Assembly (NCBI GenBank): GCA_963665295.1
Contig: OY762209.1
Coordinates: 4,192,001-4,256,000, forward strand
From: Syntrophorhabdaceae bacterium
Lineage (GTDB): Bacteria > Desulfobacterota > Syntrophorhabdia > Syntrophorhabdales > Syntrophorhabdaceae
Length of the DNA stretch: 64,000 nucleotides
Reading direction: 5' to 3'
Numbering within the stretch: position 1 is the stretch's first letter; each line of letters opens with the position of its first letter. The translations under genes and the position numbers were made by a program. This document shows positions 10,027 to 21,687 of this stretch, in pieces. The notes beneath the pieces are model-generated. The model searched no databases, was not told where the DNA came from, and was given only the letters and a program-made list of their open reading frames with translations.

Positions 10027-11262
10027 ATGATAACTATCGACGATATATACGAAGCCGGGAGGCGCATAGAACCCTTCATCCATAAGACCCCGCTGATCCA
10101 CTCAAGTTCCCTGAGTAAGGCCACAGGGGCCGAGGTCTTCATAAAAGCGGAAAATCTCCAGAAGACAGGTGCGTTTAAAGTGCGAGGTGCCTTCAACAAG
10201 ATGATAGGTCTCGGGGCGGACAAAGTCATTACCGCCTCCATGGGCAACCATGCCCAGGCGGTTGCCTTCGCAGCAAGGGAAACAGGGGCCAGGGCAAGGA
10301 TTGTCATGCCCGTCATGGTGACCCTGGTAAAAGAAGAAGCCTCGAAGGCTTACGGGGCGGAGGTTATTCTTTATGGAGACAACTTCCGCGAGTCCCTCGA
10401 ATATGCCCTGTCCCAGAACGAATACCTCTTCATCCACCCCTTTGATGACGACCGGATCATCGCCGGACAGGGGACCATAGGTCTTGAGATTATGGAGCAA
10501 ACGCAGGGAATCGATGCGGTGCTCGTGCCCGTGGGCGGAGGAGGTCTTGTCGCGGGAATTGCCCTTGCCGTGAAGGCCATTTCTCCGCAAACGGAGGTCA
10601 TAGGTGTCCAGACCGAGTCGGCCCCCTCGGCGTACAGGTCCTTCTACGAACGCCGGCTCGCCACGATCCCGCCATGCCCCACCATAGCGGACGGCATTGC
10701 GGTAGGAAGGACCGGCGACAGGCCTTTCGAAGTCATAGCCTCCCTGGTGGACGACATGATACTGGTGAAGGAAGACTCCATAGCACTGTCGGTTCTTCTT
10801 TTCATGGAAAGGATGAAACTGGTTGTGGAGGGGGCAGGCGCAGTCCCCCTTGGGGCGCTTCTCTCGCACAAGGAACGCTTCAGAGGAAAACGTGTCGCAC
10901 TCGTTGCAAGCGGCGGAAACATCGATTTTACCATCATCGACCGTATTGTGCGTAAAGGCCTCGTTACCAACGGGAGGATCGCGGTTTTCGAGGTCATTGT
11001 CCACGACCTGCCGGGCAGCCTCCGCGACCTCACGGGGATTATCGCGGCCCACCGGGCGAATATCCTCGACGTGTATCACAACAGACTCGCCGAAAACGTC
11101 CCGGTCGGGAAGACCGAGGTGGCATTTACCGTGGAGGCGCGTTCCAGGGAGAACCTGGAAGAACTGCTTTCAAGTATCAGGGCCGGGGGCTTTGTTGTGA
11201 AGGATGTCGGGTCCCTTCCGGATAACGGCTATCCCCGGGCTCCCGATGGGGAGGGCGGATGA
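10027..11262 (+). CDS. ilvA: Threonine ammonia-lyase (PLP), form with a single C-terminal ACT domain
   Basis: KAENLQKTGAFKVRGA (PLP lysine), ASMGNHAQ, PVGGGGL, SGGNID, ACT motif DLPGSL. Confidence 0.92.
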   Translation: MITIDDIYEAGRRIEPFIHKTPLIHSSSLSKATGAEVFIKAENLQKTGAFKVRGAFNKMIGLGADKVITASMGNHAQAVAFAARETGARARIVMPVMVTLVKEEASKAYGAEVILYGDNFRESLEYALSQNEYLFIHPFDDDRIIAGQGTIGLEIMEQTQGIDAVLVPVGGGGLVAGIALAVKAISPQTEVIGVQTESAPSAYRSFYERRLATIPPCPTIADGIAVGRTGDRPFEVIASLVDDMILVKEDSIALSVLLFMERMKLVVEGAGAVPLGALLSHKERFRGKRVALVASGGNIDFTIIDRIVRKGLVTNGRIAVFEVIVHDLPGSLRDLTGIIAAHRANILDVYHNRLAENVPVGKTEVAFTVEARSRENLEELLSSIRAGGFVVKDVGSLPDNGYPRAPDGEGG

Positions 11263-14555: not shown

Positions 14556-14900
14556 TCATGGCTGTGACCGGAATGTCTCCACCGCCGCTTCGATATCCCT
14601 CAACACCGGGATATCCGTGGAGAGGTCCACCATCTCGAACACCCGTTTTACCGTCTCATTTGCCCCGCATATTACCATCTTCCCTTTTCCTTCCTCTACC
14701 CGGCCCTGGGACTGGTAAAGAACCCTTATCCCTGCGCTGCTTATATATTCCAGATCATGGAAGTCCAATACGAGAAAGCACTGTCCCCTCTCCACCAGGG
14801 CCCTCAATGATTCTGTCAGTCCCGGGGCGGAAACTGCGTCAAGCCTCCCCTTAACCGTCAGGATCAGGATGTGATCTTTAGAATAATTTGTGATTTCCAT
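14556..14900 (-). CDS. STAS anti-sigma-factor antagonist (RsbV/SpoIIAA-like)
   Basis: GRLDAVSA, LEYISSAGIR with phosphorylatable Ser; RBS GAGGAG. Confidence 0.9.
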   Translation of the reverse strand: MEITNYSKDHILILTVKGRLDAVSAPGLTESLRALVERGQCFLVLDFHDLEYISSAGIRVLYQSQGRVEEGKGKMVICGANETVKRVFEMVDLSTDIPVLRDIEAAVETFRSQP

Positions 14901-14985
14901 TCTTCTCTCCTCTCGCAGTGGATCCCCGCCCAAAAAGGCGCTCCACGAACATTATCGGTATTTTCGCAGTTAAGTTTCCCTTTGT

Positions 14986-17076
14986 CTACGCTTTTTCAAC
15001 CATCCCGGGGAAGGCGGCAGGCCCAAGGTACCTCACGCACAGCATGGTAATATCGTCGGATTGTATGGAACCCGCCGAGTGCGCTCTCACTGCGTCAAGG
15101 ACACGATGGGCCATGTCCTCCGGAGAAGTCATCGGGTCGGTCCGTCGCAAGGTAAAGAGGAGCCTTTCCTCGCCGAATAACCTCCCTTCGGAATCCATTG
15201 CCTCCGTGACCCCATCGGTGAACATGAACAAGGCCTGACCTTGGGACAGGACCATGGCCTGACCCTTGAAAGACGTCTCCCTCCTGATGCCGAGCGGCCT
15301 TCCCGGCGTCACGGGCACCGCCATTGCCCCAAGGTCCGGCCCCATCAGGTAAGGAGGATTATGACCTGCGTTTGCGTAATCGAGTTCTCCTGTCTCCACG
15401 TTCAGGACCGCGAGAAAAATCGTGGTAAACATGACGTGGTCATTCTCCTCGCAGAGAACATTGTTAGCCTTCGTGAGGATTTCCGAGGCAAAGGCGGGCC
15501 CCCTCTCGGCCGCGGCAAGGAGCCTGATAACCGTTTTGCTCCTCGCCATAAACAACGCGGCAGGGACTCCTTTATCCGTTACGTCGCCTATCACAAGGCA
15601 CAGGCGGGTATCATCGATGAAGAAAAAGTCGTAGAAATCGCCGCCCACTTCCCGCGCAGGTTCGAGTACCGCGAAAAGCCCGAAGGTCTCCCGGGTCAAC
15701 CCGGGAGGATGGGGGACCATGCTCATCTGTATTTCGTGGGCAATCTTCAATTCACTTTCAATCTTCTCCTTGGCGGCGGTGGTCTCCTTGAGTTTTTCGA
15801 TATACCCGGTGAGCGACCCTATCATAAATGCGAAGGCGTCGGCCAGGCCCGCGATTTCATCCTTCGATTTGCCGGCAAGGCTTTTGATCCCCGCACGGAT
15901 CTCGTCAACCATGTGAAAATCCGTGCGCGAGAGGGACCTCGCATAAAAGCTCAGAAGCTTCAGATTGCCTGTCATCCTGCCCACCAGAAAAAGGGCGAGT
16001 AGGCAGCTTAAAACGATGATGGTAATGGTGAGCACGATCTGCCAGGTGACAATCTTTTTGACCGGAGCATCTATCTCATCCTTGTAAACGGAAGCCACCA
16101 CATACCATCCCAGGGGGGCAAAGTAATCCGCGTACCCTTCCTTCAGGAAGCGATACTCGTTGGGATGGTCGGGTGGTTTGTTCCATAGATAGACAAAGGG
16201 GATTCCCGGGGTTGCGGACGCCCTGACTATGTCGTCATAATGGTTTGTGCCCCTCACGGGGTCCTTGACGCCGGCCACGTTCGTACCCGCCCGCTCGGGG
16301 TGAAGGAGCATCTGTTTCCGGTCGTCAAAAAGATAGAAGTACCCCGTCTTGCCTATGGTTATCCTGCTGAACGTATCTTTCAGGTCTGAGAGCACCCGGG
16401 CGATCTTGACGTCCTCATCCTTTTGGATGTCATCGATGTATACACCGGTTCCCACGATCCAGTTCCACTTCCGGTAAAGTTCTACGTAACTCAATTTCTC
16501 AACAGGCTTGTTCTCGCCCAGCCTTATGTGCCAAAAGGAATCAAACCCGCTTCCACGAGTCCTCGCCGTCTTTATGACGTCCCTTACCACGTATTTTCCC
16601 TTCACATCGCGGTATTGCCAAAGGTCTTTCTTATGGAGACCGGGGTCCGGATGGGAAATGTTCATTCCTTTCTCATCGTAGATGAAGAAGTAATCATTAT
16701 TCCCGAACTTGAATCGCCTCACTGATTCCGCCGCGAACTGTTTCGCCTGATTCTCGGTGAGGACGCCCGCTTCGTAAAGGCGCTCGCAGGAGTCGATATG
16801 CGCAATAACAACGGCTACCAGGTTTCTCAGTTGCTCCTTATATCTGAGCAAGGCGTACTCCCGGTGGTAGACAATGCTCTTGTACTGGTTTTCAATATCG
16901 AGTTTGACAAGAGAAAGTTGGTTTCGCGCCGCGTCCCTGGTCGTCCGACCCACAACCCGGGTGACTTCCGTGCCGGTGAGGGCCATAATCGCCGCAGATG
17001 AAACGACAAGTATGCCCACAATAAGAAGGAGCATTTTCGACCGGAATGAAGTGAACATCCGCGCTCCGAGGATCAA
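14986..17076 (-). CDS. Membrane Cache-HAMP-SpoIIE (RsbU-like PP2C) phosphatase
   Basis: TM, Cache-2-like sensor (DYFFIYD...HP...WNWIVGTGVY), TM, HAMP, AHEIQMSM, VGGDFYD, IGDVTDKG, NAGHNPP, FTDGVTEA, SDDIT. Alternative start ATG 17058. Confidence 0.92.
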   Translation of the reverse strand: MILGARMFTSFRSKMLLLIVGILVVSSAAIMALTGTEVTRVVGRTTRDAARNQLSLVKLDIENQYKSIVYHREYALLRYKEQLRNLVAVVIAHIDSCERLYEAGVLTENQAKQFAAESVRRFKFGNNDYFFIYDEKGMNISHPDPGLHKKDLWQYRDVKGKYVVRDVIKTARTRGSGFDSFWHIRLGENKPVEKLSYVELYRKWNWIVGTGVYIDDIQKDEDVKIARVLSDLKDTFSRITIGKTGYFYLFDDRKQMLLHPERAGTNVAGVKDPVRGTNHYDDIVRASATPGIPFVYLWNKPPDHPNEYRFLKEGYADYFAPLGWYVVASVYKDEIDAPVKKIVTWQIVLTITIIVLSCLLALFLVGRMTGNLKLLSFYARSLSRTDFHMVDEIRAGIKSLAGKSKDEIAGLADAFAFMIGSLTGYIEKLKETTAAKEKIESELKIAHEIQMSMVPHPPGLTRETFGLFAVLEPAREVGGDFYDFFFIDDTRLCLVIGDVTDKGVPAALFMARSKTVIRLLAAAERGPAFASEILTKANNVLCEENDHVMFTTIFLAVLNVETGELDYANAGHNPPYLMGPDLGAMAVPVTPGRPLGIRRETSFKGQAMVLSQGQALFMFTDGVTEAMDSEGRLFGEERLLFTLRRTDPMTSPEDMAHRVLDAVRAHSAGSIQSDDITMLCVRYLGPAAFPGMVEKA

Positions 17077-18788
17077 TGCTCGAAATGAAGGAACAGAACG
17101 TTCATATCCCCTTTCCGTTCCTCGCGGATGCTGTCCGCATACTGCTGAATCATGTAGCCCGAGAGTCTCACCGCCGCCTGCACATCCCTCTTCAGTTCCT
17201 CCTTAGTAGGCCTGGAGGGCGACAGGAGAAGGGCCTGACCGCGGTATGATATGGCGACATCAAGTTTGAATTCATCGAATTCAACCTTCATCCTGATTGA
17301 GGTATCAGCCAAATCTATGAGAGACGCAGCCTCCAGGAATTCGTTCATGGCAGCTATGGCGTTACGGATCACCTCGGGGCGGGCCCCCCAGTTCCTTCCC
17401 TGATTCTCCATAAAATCGAAAATCTTGTCCGACGAATCAGTGCCCGCACCAAGATCCAGAACTGCCTGCTTCGAGATCCCTATCCTGAGGGCGAGGTTGA
17501 GAAGGATCGCGGTGACCGTTGCAAGGGAAAGGGATGAACTGAATATGGGTCTTATCCAGGGATGAACATTGAGATAGAGGTCGGGGACCATGTCCGCGCT
17601 CAGGCCGAAGATTATCGATGCCCCGACCACGAAGGTCTTGCGGGCATCCATCATTCTCGACATCATGATCTGAAATCCGGCAACGATCATGAAACTCACC
17701 GCAAAGATCAGCGTTGCCCCGATGACGGGTTTCGGCATTATAAGAAACACCTCCGCCAATTTGGGGAAGAACGCGAGGAGTATGAAAATACCGCCCGCAG
17801 CGAAGGCGATAATGCGGCTTGTGGCGCCTGTTGCCACGGAGAGACCCACATTCGAGGACGATGTAGATTGTCCATACCCTCCTATTATGCCGGGAATGAG
17901 CCCTCCCAGTCCGTCCGCCAGGATTCCTCGTGCTACCCGCTTCATGTCGGGTCGCTTCCACTCGCTGTCGTTGATCTTCTGGCACGTCACGAGGTCTCCC
18001 ACGGTCTTGAACGTAGAACAAAGTGTGGCTACTCCGAAGGGAATGATAAAGGAGAAATCAAAAGCCCATCCCACGTGGTTCAGTTGGGGAAACGCAAAGA
18101 CAGGAGCCTTCGATATCTTCTCCAGATCACTCCCCGTGAGAATACCGAGCAGGGCAGATGCCAGATATCCCGTTACCATTCCCACCAGGATACAGTAGAG
18201 CTTCATTTTCCCTTTGCTCCACACGCTGAGGATAATGATCACCAGGAAAGTGGTGAGCCCGACCATTATCTCCCTCGGGTGCAGAGAAGAACTGCCTGCC
18301 TCGTAGCCAAAGAAGTTCTTCACCGAAATGGGGATGACCACGATACCCACCATGGCCACCACAACCCCCGTCACCTCGCTCGGGAAGAGGACCCTGAGCC
18401 TGTGCATAACCCTGGAAAAAAGACACTCGATTATCCCCGCCACAGCGGTCATGCCGAAGAGAAGAGGGAGGCCGCCCGCCGCTACGGCAACCTTGGAGGC
18501 ATCGAAGTACGAGGGGCCGCACACCGACGGGCAGAGGAACCCTGAACCCAAGGGACCCTTCTTAAAGGCCTGTATCACCGTAGCCAATCCCCCGGCGATC
18601 ATGGACAGGCTTATGAAACTCCTCGCCGTCTCGGGCGTTATTGAGCTGCCCAGTTGACGGACAATGAGGACAGGAAAGATGATTGCAATGAAGAGTATAA
18701 ACACGTGCTGGAGCCCCAGCACAATAGTCGTAAAAAGGGGAGGCCTGTCATCTACGCCGTAGATCAGGTTTGTCGGTCTCTTGCCCAT
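17073..18788 (-). CDS. NCS2 (uracil/xanthine permease) family protein with C-terminal degenerate RsbW-like HATPase domain
   Basis: LIYGVDDRPP, LGLQH, GILADG, SNVGLSVATG, PKPVIG; about 125 extra C-terminal residues with an HATPase_c_2-like layout. The stop codon overlaps the next gene's TTG. Confidence 0.88.
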   Translation of the reverse strand: MGKRPTNLIYGVDDRPPLFTTIVLGLQHVFILFIAIIFPVLIVRQLGSSITPETARSFISLSMIAGGLATVIQAFKKGPLGSGFLCPSVCGPSYFDASKVAVAAGGLPLLFGMTAVAGIIECLFSRVMHRLRVLFPSEVTGVVVAMVGIVVIPISVKNFFGYEAGSSSLHPREIMVGLTTFLVIIILSVWSKGKMKLYCILVGMVTGYLASALLGILTGSDLEKISKAPVFAFPQLNHVGWAFDFSFIIPFGVATLCSTFKTVGDLVTCQKINDSEWKRPDMKRVARGILADGLGGLIPGIIGGYGQSTSSSNVGLSVATGATSRIIAFAAGGIFILLAFFPKLAEVFLIMPKPVIGATLIFAVSFMIVAGFQIMMSRMMDARKTFVVGASIIFGLSADMVPDLYLNVHPWIRPIFSSSLSLATVTAILLNLALRIGISKQAVLDLGAGTDSSDKIFDFMENQGRNWGARPEVIRNAIAAMNEFLEAASLIDLADTSIRMKVEFDEFKLDVAISYRGQALLLSPSRPTKEELKRDVQAAVRLSGYMIQQYADSIREERKGDMNVLFLHFEH

Positions 18789-18847: not shown

Positions 18848-20639
18848 CCATAATCCACCACCCCTCTCGCCCTTACCGCTGCTTTGCCCTCCATCCGAGC
18901 CGTCTTTCCCCACCACCCTTTAAATCGGAATCAAATATGAACCCTTCGTTCCGTTTCGTCTATCCAGACATGGCACACGCCTCTCTGACGGGTAAGATTT
19001 GGGCACACCCCTCCTTTCGCCGTCTCGTTCCACAAAGAGTCTCTTCCCCGCTTCTCATCATCTATCCCGAAAGTACAAGCTCCATGATGCGTTGCCGTGC
19101 TGCGAACAATAATTCCAGGGAGGGGTGTTCTCTCGATATGCGGATCACAAGTTCCCTCGCGTGGGTCATGACCCTTCCCGGCAGGTTGATGAGGGAAAAG
19201 CGGATCGCCTTCATTCTCCTGGTGGCCCATGATCCTTTCAGCACCAGACGTTTCAATGCCGAATTGATATTAAAGGCGAGGACCATTATCCACCACCAGG
19301 CGGCATTCTCTCCGAACTTACCCGTTGGGAGTCTTCCCCCGGCAAGGTCCTCTTTCATGATAGAGTGGGCCTCCTCCGATTTCCCTGCCCGTTTATAATG
19401 CCACCGTATCAGTTCATCTCCTTCCATATCCCTGTTTGTGACGATGCCGAATATCCTGTAGCGCTTTTGTGTCATCATCATCGTAGGGAATGAGAGTTGC
19501 CCTTCCATGCCGGGAAGGATATCCTGTTTTAAAAGCTCACGGGTAGCGAAGTAGCGGTATTCCGGATCCTTTTTGCTGTGGCCGACCGCATTGGGTACGT
19601 AGCAGACTTCGGTCCACTCCCTTCCCGTCTCCTTTCCTTCTTTATAGAGAGGTCTCCACTCTTCTGCCTGGGCCACTGCCTTTTTGAACTCAGAGGTCAC
19701 ATCGGCGCCTATGGCAAACTCGATCCTGCCGAAGCGTGTATTTTCGCCATTCTCGCAGTACTTCAGGAGGTCGTGTTGATACCCTGCGGTATCGGAACGG
19801 AGATAGACCTTCTCTACACCGGGAGGAAGCTTTGAGAGGGCTTCCTTGAATACTCTTAACTGTTCATGTCCCGCAGGGACATTGCCGTCCCTGAACTCGG
19901 TATGAAGAATCAACTCCTGTTCCGCCCACCAGGTATTGAACGGTTGATAGGCCTTATGGTGTTTATAACTGAAGAGGGCGCTTCTCTTCAACGTCTCTAT
20001 CAGGGTTGCATCCATATCGAGGGTCGCGACCTTTGGGGAGGCGGACTTCACTATGGAGCAGATGAAATCCCGGTGTACCTTCATGAGGTTCATAAGATGC
20101 TCGTTCGGGGCGGGAATGAAGGCCTTCCCCTTTTCCCTCTTCTTCTCCTCCCGCGCATCATGGAAGGCGGAGAGATACCGGAATATCGGGGAAGGGGAAG
20201 GGAACGTGCGTTGCCGCTCCCGGGCTTTCCGTTCCTTGCGGGTAAGCCCTTTCTGTTCTATTCGCCGCACGACTCTGCACAGCCCCTCATCCTTTTCAAG
20301 GATAGTTACATCGTCTACGCTGTCTCCTCCGGCAAGGTTCAGAAGAATGAGGGTGAGGATTATCTGCGTGTCTGTCCAGCCTTCACTCTTTATATGCATG
20401 TGAGCACCGATCGAACCGGCGAGGCCCAAGGCCGATGCAAGGTCGAGGTAGAGGGGGAGCCCTGCGAGGGAGGTCATGCCTGTTTCTCTTTTCTCTTCTT
20501 CATACTTGTACGGAAGGAGGCCCTGTGGCATAATTGATTCACCTCGTTGGTGATGGAATTTGGTGTGGTGACTACATTCTATCATCCCTATTCGTAGGGG
20601 CCAACGGGGTTTTTGATTATTTTTGGTGGGGGATTAAGG
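18848..20639 (-). mobile_element. Complete IS1380-family insertion sequence (1792 bp)
   Basis: Ends CCATAATCC (18848) and GGATTAAGG (20631-20639) form an imperfect inverted repeat; 4-bp direct repeat GGCA at 18844-18847 and 20640-20643. Confidence 0.85.
19062..20531 (-). CDS. IS1380-family DDE transposase
   Basis: TSLAGLP, LDMDAT, FRDGNVPA, LRSDTAG, RAGKSEEAHSIMK, FGENAAWW. Confidence 0.9.
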   Translation of the reverse strand: MPQGLLPYKYEEEKRETGMTSLAGLPLYLDLASALGLAGSIGAHMHIKSEGWTDTQIILTLILLNLAGGDSVDDVTILEKDEGLCRVVRRIEQKGLTRKERKARERQRTFPSPSPIFRYLSAFHDAREEKKREKGKAFIPAPNEHLMNLMKVHRDFICSIVKSASPKVATLDMDATLIETLKRSALFSYKHHKAYQPFNTWWAEQELILHTEFRDGNVPAGHEQLRVFKEALSKLPPGVEKVYLRSDTAGYQHDLLKYCENGENTRFGRIEFAIGADVTSEFKKAVAQAEEWRPLYKEGKETGREWTEVCYVPNAVGHSKKDPEYRYFATRELLKQDILPGMEGQLSFPTMMMTQKRYRIFGIVTNRDMEGDELIRWHYKRAGKSEEAHSIMKEDLAGGRLPTGKFGENAAWWWIMVLAFNINSALKRLVLKGSWATRRMKAIRFSLINLPGRVMTHARELVIRISREHPSLELLFAARQRIMELVLSG

Positions 20640-20835: not shown

Positions 20836-21687
20836 ATGAACATCGTTGCGGGCATCAGCGAAGATATCGGAATGCGGAGCGCAATGGAGGACGAGCACGC
20901 CATCTATGAGAGGCCCGACCTGTCCTTTTTCAGCGCCGAGGTGTACGACGGCCACCTGGGAATAGAAGCAGCGCGGCTCGCCTCGGAGATGCTCACCCCG
21001 CATTTTCTCAACGCCTTGTCCACTGAATCGGAAAAACGGGCGTACGACCGGGTCCCCGTGGAAGAGATGCTGCGGGAGGCCTTCGTCGCGATCGACAATT
21101 ACATCGTATACCAACGTATCAGAAGCGGGGCCGCCGCCGCGCTCCTTTATATCATGGGAGACCGGTTCCTGGCCGCCAACGCGGGCGACTCACGGGTTGT
21201 CATGGGCACGGAATCGGGCGTCATGCCCCTCACTCTCGATCATAAGCCCGATATTCCTGAGGAAAGGGCGCGGATAGAAGCGCTCGGCGGAAAGGTCACG
21301 CGGATCGGGGTCCCCCGGGTCATGGGTCTCCTTGCCATGAGCCGTGCCCTTGGGGACGCGGAACTCAAACCCCTGGTCACCTGCGAACCCCGGATAACTG
21401 CAGGTCTTCTCGGGCGGGAAAATGATTATGCGGTGGTGGCCTGCGACGGGGTGTGGGATGTCCTCAGCCCGGAAGCCGTGATGGATATCGTCCGCCATTC
21501 GGGAAATGTCCAAAAAGGGGCCGATGCGGTAAGAGATGCCGCTAGGCAGCAGGGAAGCTCCGACAATGTCACCGTCATCGTTCTCGACCTCACCCGCCAT
21601 ACCCGCCTGTGCAGCCGTGGATGGATGGAGATATCCCTTGTCTTTGACAAGGGACTAACCCTCTTGAACCGGGACGCCGCTCATTAG
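20836..21687 (+). CDS. PP2C/PPM Ser/Thr phosphatase, eukaryote-like
   Basis: RSAMED, YDGH, NAGDSR, DHKPDIPEERARIEALGG, LAMSRALGD, CDGVWD, SSDNVT. Confidence 0.92.
   Translation: MNIVAGISEDIGMRSAMEDEHAIYERPDLSFFSAEVYDGHLGIEAARLASEMLTPHFLNALSTESEKRAYDRVPVEEMLREAFVAIDNYIVYQRIRSGAAAALLYIMGDRFLAANAGDSRVVMGTESGVMPLTLDHKPDIPEERARIEALGGKVTRIGVPRVMGLLAMSRALGDAELKPLVTCEPRITAGLLGRENDYAVVACDGVWDVLSPEAVMDIVRHSGNVQKGADAVRDAARQQGSSDNVTVIVLDLTRHTRLCSRGWMEISLVFDKGLTLLNRDAAH

Follow-up and report, generated by a model that had tools for sequence, protein, structure and literature searches.

A permease with a predicted kinase-dead RsbW tail as candidate output of a partner switch

Partner switches are known mainly as controls of sigma factors, and the question addressed here is what such a switch might do in an operon that encodes a membrane carrier. 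It is raised by a window of 64,000 nucleotides (the whole stretch of DNA analysed, positions 4,192,001 to 4,256,000 of contig OY762209.1, assembly GCA_963665295.1) from a Syntrophorhabdaceae bacterium, in which three linked minus-strand genes encode an NCS2 permease, a dCache_2-SpoIIE phosphatase and a STAS protein; all three, as a sequence-only reading had proposed, are open reading frames with the expected Pfam domains. The permease (17073-18788, minus strand, 571 amino acids; Pfam Xan_ur_permease, PF00860, at residues 21-402) consists of an NCS2/SLC23-fold membrane part (residues 1-436, 17481..18788), recognised by PF00860, alignment to UraA and UapA, AlphaFold2 and Foldseek, and of a C-terminal domain of RsbW/SpoIIAB fold (residues 437-571, 17073..17480), hereafter the tail, which is predicted to be kinase-dead on the evidence of AlphaFold2, Foldseek, VIA, hhalign and conservation. 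Downstream lie the membrane sensor phosphatase (14986..17058, minus strand; dCache_2 at residues 40-330 and SpoIIE/PP2C at 482-677 by Pfam, with a probable HAMP domain), whose SpoIIE/PP2C domain has the GGDFY, DxxxKG, TDG and DD motifs, and a single-domain STAS protein of 114 amino acids (14556..14900, minus strand; PF01740 E 1.6e-19, TIGR00377 above its cut-off) whose phospho-acceptor motif reads Y-I-S-S55-A-G. The operon has in these two the PP2C phosphatase and the phosphorylatable STAS protein of a partner switch. On balance we incline to the view that a partner switch independent of sigma factors has the permease as its output, docking of the STAS protein on the tail altering transport; the fusion itself is real and widespread, and apparently an undescribed variant of partner switching.

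The tail and its lost ATP site

The C-terminal extension that had been read by eye is real, and it comprises 135 residues (437-571, 17073-17480) rather than about 125. The AlphaFold model of the tail has a predicted local distance difference test score (pLDDT) of 94.7 (82 alignment rows), and the first Foldseek matches to it are SpoIIAB, UsfX and RsbW, with E values of 7e-6 to 6e-5. In a wide structural search with VIA the top match was UsfX-RsfB 8IH8, UsfX reaching Z 14.3 (root mean square deviation 2.1 A, 116 aligned), SpoIIAB 13.5, Rv1364c 13.4, RsbW 13.1 and SiaB 11.2. When the tail profile was compared by hhalign with one built from 21 intact RsbW proteins, most of them encoded beside these permeases, 137 columns were aligned at 96.7% with E 3.5e-10. 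The RsbW/GHKL layout first seen by eye is therefore borne out by Foldseek, the VIA search and hhalign, and the tail has the Bergerat fold of the RsbW subtype. Searches of Pfam, NCBIfam and PDB sequences with the tail returned nothing relevant, PF13581 gave no match on this permease and weak ones in 5 of 61 homologs (best E 0.0022), and a single-protein scan of the genome contigs found no relative; the fold is visible only by structure and by profile-profile comparison. As the tail belongs to a conserved family (at least 438 clusters at E<=0.001 and 50% identity, from bacteria and methanogens) and has a confident RsbW-type fold, it is not a product of chance. An origin from histidine kinases was also considered and is rejected, their Z values being at most 8.5 as compared with 11-14 for the RsbW group.

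What distinguishes the tail from RsbW kinases is the ATP site. In the profile alignment, which agrees with the sequence-only reading at all three motifs, the N-box ExxxN has become E483-F-L-E486-A487, the G1 motif DxG has become Y515-R-G517, and the G2 motif GGLG has become V540-R-L-S543 with loss of the G2 loop. E483 aligns with Glu46 of SpoIIAB and A487 with Asn50, which are the catalytic base and a Mg-binding residue respectively according to 10.1101/2022.07.14.500015. The family alignment of 290 rows retains the N-box Asn in 0 of 286 and the G1 Asp in 0 of 285 rows with a residue at these positions, whereas position 483 is E or Q in 282/286 rows (Gln in 115) and position 486 is E or D in 276/286; the motifs WGAR, FDE and HFxH are characteristic of the family. 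The Mg-ATP residues of RsbW kinases, i.e., the N-box Asn, the G1 Asp and the G2 glycines, are missing from the tail, and sequence and model together confirm it as an RsbW-fold domain without an ATP site that is predicted to be kinase-dead. In the full-length model of the permease (pLDDT 95.2, predicted template modelling score 0.90, folded without the STAS protein) its first strand starts ~5 residues past the last membrane helix.

Folded together with the STAS protein of the operon, the tail gave a complex score of 0.84 (median of three runs at 0.84, 0.86 and 0.75), as compared with 0.03 for the best of three controls; the runs share at least 91% of their contacts and the partner has pLDDT of at least 86. 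The mark applied to this score was reached by 116 of 157 solved and by 2 of 215 mismatched pairs, a calibration that is rough here as our own alignments were used. The predicted docking follows the canonical mode, with the STAS phospho-acceptor placed on the (dead) active site, and the tightest predicted contacts are those of tail residues E483, L542, S543 and M546 with S55 and of E486 with S54-A56. S55 is kept in every one of 40 aligned STAS proteins, and the STAS-facing tail residues E/Q483, E486, L542, S/A543 and L/M546 are conserved in the groups with and without linked switch genes. The interface that the sequence-only reading had expected was thus found by complex prediction at the phospho-serine, and it may mirror solved look-alikes: since SpoIIAB, RsbW and UsfX complexes with STAS proteins have already been solved, the high score may show likeness rather than binding. 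We consider it likely that the tail binds the STAS protein. As two glutamates face S55, phospho-STAS is presumably excluded, and the model suggests that it is kept off the tail.

Gene linkage and a separate kinase

To place the operon in its family, we collected at least 125 loci by a degenerate motif scan of species-representative genomes. The tail is found in all 125 listed loci, with NCS2 in frame or just upstream in all but L121. Neighbourhoods were counted in the 80 listed loci with long flanks minus the duplicates L040, L104 and L110, i.e., in 77 non-redundant loci; 45 loci with only 300-nt flanks and the fragments L017 and L018 were left out of these counts, G088/L032, a true RsbW weakly matched by the tail profile, was dropped, and G014 (L017) still counts as a carrier in the own-phylum sample. 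Among the 77 listed loci a STAS gene is present in 39, SpoIIE in 33, RsbW in 30, at least one of them in 43 and all three in 24, and Pfam confirmed 33 of the 34 SpoIIE candidates in a submitted subset, as well as the submitted RsbW and STAS proteins. Thirty-one of these loci have a STAS domain within 1 kb; upon removal of two enzyme fusions, 29/77 remain with a switch-type STAS gene, as compared with about 0.4% expected from the genome-wide density of STAS genes. The expectation that tail fusions co-occur with STAS and SpoIIE genes is borne out by these counts. Linked loci occur in Pseudomonadota, Bacillota, Acidobacteriota, Chloroflexota, Bacteroidota, Thermodesulfobacteriota and methanogens and are scattered over the permease tree (a quick tree of 100 rows, on which the SUW label needs 18 changes), consistent with an ancient association that was repeatedly broken up. 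The Cache domain, which had been taken as the characteristic input, does not hold that place: linked phosphatases carry dCache, 5TM-LYT, MASE1, receiver, cNMP, FHA or HAMP domains, and Cache as the defining input is rejected, the sensor being interchangeable among them.

Searching every locus with profiles made from the sigma-70 genes of this genome, which divergent extracytoplasmic function (ECF) factors may escape, gave no sigma-70 match. Complete or near-complete operons also stand on archaeal-labelled contigs, for example in L169 beside an HMG-CoA reductase gene and in L166 beside arginine biosynthesis genes, and each of the archaeal-labelled genomes G455 and G459 has a single STAS and a single such RsbW gene, both adjoining the permease. 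That archaea have no sigma factors is well established.

The sequence-only reading had cast the tail as the missing third component of the switch, and this did not stand: intact RsbW genes occur in 30/77 listed loci and RsbW of this subtype in 63/64 carrier genomes, as compared with 83/579 non-carriers (three evenly drawn samples pooled). The corresponding counts are 12/13 carriers against 69/388 non-carriers in the sample of its own phylum (E<=1e-30), 24/24 against 2/97 in the family of a Xanthobacter genome, and 27/27 against 12/94 in that of a Bordetella genome, where RsbW lies within about 1 kb of the tail in 21 of the 27; among chosen carrier genomes 40 of 41 have it, even where it is unlinked. 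The neighbouring RsbW proteins mostly retain ExxN, DxG and GGxG. Since the intact RsbW mostly has a gene of its own, the tail counts as an additional copy of the output type. In the genome studied here the best intact candidate (C1:3000467-3000898) adjoins another STAS gene, 1.2 Mb from the operon.

The tail is found at the end of other proteins as well. Of 272 fetched tail proteins, 211 also match NCS2 and 53 are short pieces; the tail further ends a KefB-type (CPA) antiporter (P0088/P0276, a cluster with 28 members, of which one stands on 15 contigs) and an AMP-binding (acyl-CoA-ligase-type) enzyme (P0091/P0294, two clusters). Single receiver-tail and DUF5698-tail proteins (P0144, P0125) may be assembly chimeras, and P0092 appears chimeric. 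It is an attractive thought, to which we give rather less than even credence, that the dead RsbW domain serves as a portable receptor module for STAS proteins. It would turn partner switches into post-translational on/off controls of non-transcriptional targets, gate a widespread and unannotated SLC23 subfamily, probably of anion carriers, in bacteria and methanogens, and have been grafted onto P0088/P0276 and P0091/P0294. If so, the module would be a concrete target class for sigma-less STAS systems, archaeal ones included.

The neighbourhoods hold further features that we record in their own right. Seven loci (L039, L059, L076, L079, L088, L103, L108) have two permease-tail genes each, several of them in tandem, whose products are possible heterodimers. 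Directly upstream of the permease in L063 (1962-4094) and L078 (235-2361) are ~710-aa proteins with an internal STAS domain and a PALP domain of pyridoxal phosphate (PLP) enzymes, joined in L078 by ACT; an open reading frame at 10027-11262 of the window was named threonine-dehydratase-like by eye. A gene of the Na+/Pi-cotransporter family stands among STAS and RsbW genes at L105:3887-5542 and L173:6588-8225, with related frames in L033, L094 and L111, and the same switch may control its product as a second transporter. The switch clusters of L079, L084, L098, L103, L108, L109, L112 and L173 each include a PF04392 substrate-binding protein. In Azospirillaceae (L176:5021-6697, L177:7219-8955, L178:7111-8856) an intact RsbW domain ends a protein of 560-580 aa with an unannotated N-terminal part, possibly a sensor kinase form, and ~500-aa proteins with an N-terminal RsbW-like domain adjoin a stas-rsbW pair in L003 (8953-10464) and L080 (7769-9301), the latter also matching GNAT.

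Cargo, signal and mode of action

The membrane part has the UraA-type fold with PF00860, Foldseek matching it to UraA, UapA and SVCT1, and it keeps the QH of transmembrane helix 1 (TM1) and the TM10 motif (N-x-G-x4-T). It lacks the TM8 Glu and the TM10 Gln/Glu of nucleobase NCS2 carriers (UraA, XanQ, PbuX, RutG): K261 aligns with UraA E241 and UapA E356, and S312 with UraA E290 and UapA Q408, which are substrate-binding residues (PMC3405029). Family-wide, position 261 is K in 194, D in 38, R in 17, N in 11 and E in 1 of 271 rows, and position 312 is Gln in 1 and Glu in 0 of 283 rows. The permease scores below the cut-offs of TIGR03173, TIGR00801, PRK10720 and RutG and above that of NCS2_1 only, and databases label these proteins as xanthine permease XanP or SLC23. 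Since residue 261 is basic, an anion is indicated as the cargo, which judging from the alignment is probably not a nucleobase. On the input side, the Cache pocket aligns with the carboxylate-binding sCache_2 structures 4EXO, 5G4Y and 4K08; Y123, F125, H136, F175 and K188 match carboxylate residues of 4EXO as listed in PMC12415202, and the sixth (W150) corresponds to W176 or H177 depending on a gap. From this match a small, pyruvate-like carboxylate is a plausible signal of the phosphatase. The neighbours of unlinked copies (acyl-CoA synthetases, a formate/nitrite channel and ketopantoate-reductase-like genes) loosely fit organic-acid metabolism.

Computed support for the permease as output comes from the fold, the loss of ATP-site residues, the gene linkage, the co-occurrence of the kinase and the predicted interface. 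Beyond it we infer real binding, the preference for unphosphorylated STAS, the kinase, the ligand, the cargo, and the effect on transport with its direction. We propose that an intact RsbW-type kinase encoded elsewhere, best C1:3000467-3000898, would phosphorylate the STAS protein at Ser55, and that an outside signal, probably a small carboxylate, would cause the membrane phosphatase to strip the phosphate. Unphosphorylated STAS would then dock on the tail, which follows the last transmembrane helix directly; as the tail is predicted to be kinase-dead, STAS could not be released by phosphorylation on the spot, while phospho-STAS would be kept off by the two glutamates facing the serine. Docking would change the activity of the carrier, which probably moves anions.

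Several points weigh against this proposal. The operon in the window has no RsbW gene, and with 13 sigma-70 regions and several RsbW-like genes in the genome the STAS protein could serve another output. No switch gene is found near 34 of the 77 listed loci (23 of the 49 with at least 3 kb on both sides), own-phylum listed loci are linked in only 4 of 19 cases, and a second NCS2-tail fusion in the same genome (L001, C1:271213-272916, 38% identical) lies without switch genes between acyl-CoA synthetase and deiminase genes. The RsbW profile behind the kinase counts (A7) derives largely from genes beside these permeases and leans to this subtype, and genomes of kin are not independent samples, so that the Fisher values for the co-occurrence overstate it. 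The sigma search with own-genome profiles may miss divergent ECF factors, and the complex score, obtained with our own alignments, may derive from the solved SpoIIAB/RsbW/UsfX-STAS structures. Covariation in 252 full-length rows (effective number about 187) gave no reliable contact between the tail and the membrane part, the pair K278-E472 at rank 20 being a lead only. In Bordetella, phosphorylation of BtrV promotes its binding to BtrW (PMC8256260), and the direction of the phosphorylation effect is therefore not certain here.

The same fold, interface and linkage data would also fit a permease that is the input, as a transceptor or a STAS sink: substrate binding or the elevator motion would alter the amount of STAS protein on the tail, and freed STAS would turn to a genuine RsbW or to some other target. 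With its altered substrate site the permease could be a sensor that does not transport, 7/77 listed loci contain tandem permease pairs, and kinase-negative RsbW homologs of M. smegmatis act as binders (PMC7693655). We regard this as unlikely: the phosphatases of the switch bring diverse sensors of their own, the listed loci show no other output that recurs, there is no room for a sigma output in archaeal genomes whose only STAS and only such RsbW gene adjoin the permease, and the TM1 QH and TM10 motif are kept. Slightly less likely still in our judgement is a role in assembly, in which the STAS protein is a stabilising subunit or the tail tethers STAS-bearing proteins, and phosphorylation sets amount or localisation rather than the transport cycle. 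The full-length model is confident without STAS and many listed loci have no adjacent STAS gene, unexpected for an obligatory subunit; yet MlaB on MlaF is a precedent (PMC7367683), the STAS domain of SLC26 is required for stability (PMC8256260), and the STAS-bearing PLP-enzyme fusions of L063 and L078 adjoin the permease.

A tail that was captured once from a neighbouring rsbW and now serves structure or dimerisation only, the linkage being inherited gene order with no present interaction, would account for the 34/77 unlinked loci and for the fact that the most conserved residues (WGAR, FDE, Y515/G517, HFxH) lie outside the predicted STAS contacts; RsbW-type proteins do dimerise via beta-1 (PMC10120452). 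We find this very improbable, as the STAS-facing residues are conserved in linked and unlinked groups alike, the linkage is kept in different phyla and domains although the gene order varies, and carriers retain the kinase even when unlinked. Hardly credible is an atypical active kinase replacing RsbW: the operon has no rsbW and the catalytic-base Glu is kept, but the N-box Asn, the G1 Asp and the G2 glycines are gone family-wide, position 483 is Gln in 115/286 rows, and an intact RsbW accompanies nearly all carriers. Owing to the family-wide loss of the ATP residues, the tail as an active kinase is rejected.

Surroundings of the locus and known systems

The TTGA overlap noted between the permease and phosphatase genes exists, in that a TTG at 17076 overlaps the permease TGA, but it probably does not mark the start of the phosphatase: the ATG at 17058, 14 nt past the permease stop and preceded by GGAG, is likelier because a same-genus homolog is conserved only from that Met, and the TTG remains as the alternative. 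Upstream, an insertion sequence (IS) element of 1792 bp (18848..20639, minus strand; DDE_Tnp_1_4 transposase at 19062-20585 by Pfam) is inserted 59 nt from the permease start, between the permease and a divergent PP2C gene. Five further copies in the genome are at least 99.8% identical, making six near-identical ones in all, and locus L013, syntenic and of the same genus, has no match to the IS. The element does not belong to the switch system but may alter its expression in this genome, so that local expression is uncertain. A promoter and terminator scan and a repeat search of the region gave nothing informative. The divergent gene (20836-21687, plus strand) encodes a further PP2C phosphatase, of the PF00481 type, which accompanies the permease in L013 too (conserved synteny) and could also act on the STAS protein, and the Cache-SpoIIE gene of L013 (6933-9000) is broken after residue 346 by a one-base frameshift, either a mutation or an assembly error. 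Elsewhere in the genome, sigma-70 region-2 matches on C1 at 3885675, 1406329, 1456199, 626735 and 710938 lie in open frames of about 510-525 aa, and five long primary-type sigma frames are an unusual number.

The permease with its tail falls outside the RsbW kinases, the nucleobase-carrying NCS2 subfamilies and SLC26, and in the literature searched, which leaves most subscription papers outside, we found no description of a permease-RsbW-tail fusion. In this family, hundreds of proteins that go by the name of xanthine/uracil permease turn out to have an altered substrate site and a domain missing from the annotation. The RsbU-RsbV-RsbW and SpoIIE-SpoIIAA-SpoIIAB switches of Bacillus share with homologous loci the PP2C phosphatase, the phospho-Ser STAS protein and the HATPase_c_2 kinase, as well as the fold of the tail and the canonical docking predicted for it; here, however, no sigma gene was seen in the loci, archaeal members exist, and a second RsbW copy without ATP site is fused to a carrier of the 14-helix type. 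Kinase-negative RsbW homologs also exist in mycobacteria, RsbW1 and RsbW3 of M. smegmatis and UsfX of M. tuberculosis, with RsbW2 as the separate kinase (PMC7693655); as is predicted for the tail, a non-phosphorylating STAS binder is there paired with a separate kinase. These forms are soluble and regulate SigF, whereas the dead domain here is membrane-tethered with no sigma partner seen. In the partner switches of Vibrio (SypA/SypE) and Bordetella (BtrU/V/W) similar parts include STAS proteins whose targets are described as unknown or post-transcriptional (PMC8256260, PMC10120452), whereas here a candidate STAS receptor is encoded in the operon. The tail family is a candidate target for such sigma-less STAS proteins, with an interface specified to residues.

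Among transporters, UraA, UapA, XanQ and SVCT share the fold, the TM1 QH and the N-x-G-x4-T motif, and the present permease differs from them by the replacement of both nucleobase-binding residues and by the extra 135-aa domain. MlaB is a free STAS protein that sits on its transporter in trans through a conserved Ser/Thr face, as is predicted here, and a phosphomimetic weakens its binding, while the accessible text of PMC7367683 gives no evidence that MlaB is phosphorylated; its partner MlaF, an ABC ATPase, is not of RsbW fold, whereas kinase and phosphatase are co-encoded in the loci described here. The fold shared by NCS2 and SulP/SLC26 carriers, which the sequence-only reading had invoked, is supported by a Foldseek match to SLC26Dg (E 4.9e-9), and in both cases a cytoplasmic domain follows the last helix and a STAS domain is involved. 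The covalent C-terminal STAS domain of SulP/SLC26 is absent here, the tail being RsbW-fold: the covalent domain is the predicted STAS receptor, and the membrane part is SLC23-type. Our analysis suggests that, if the proposal is true, a phosphorylation switch best known for gene expression acts directly on a transporter, and the permease would be a phosphorylation-controlled secondary carrier, an in-trans mirror of SLC26-STAS on a related fold.

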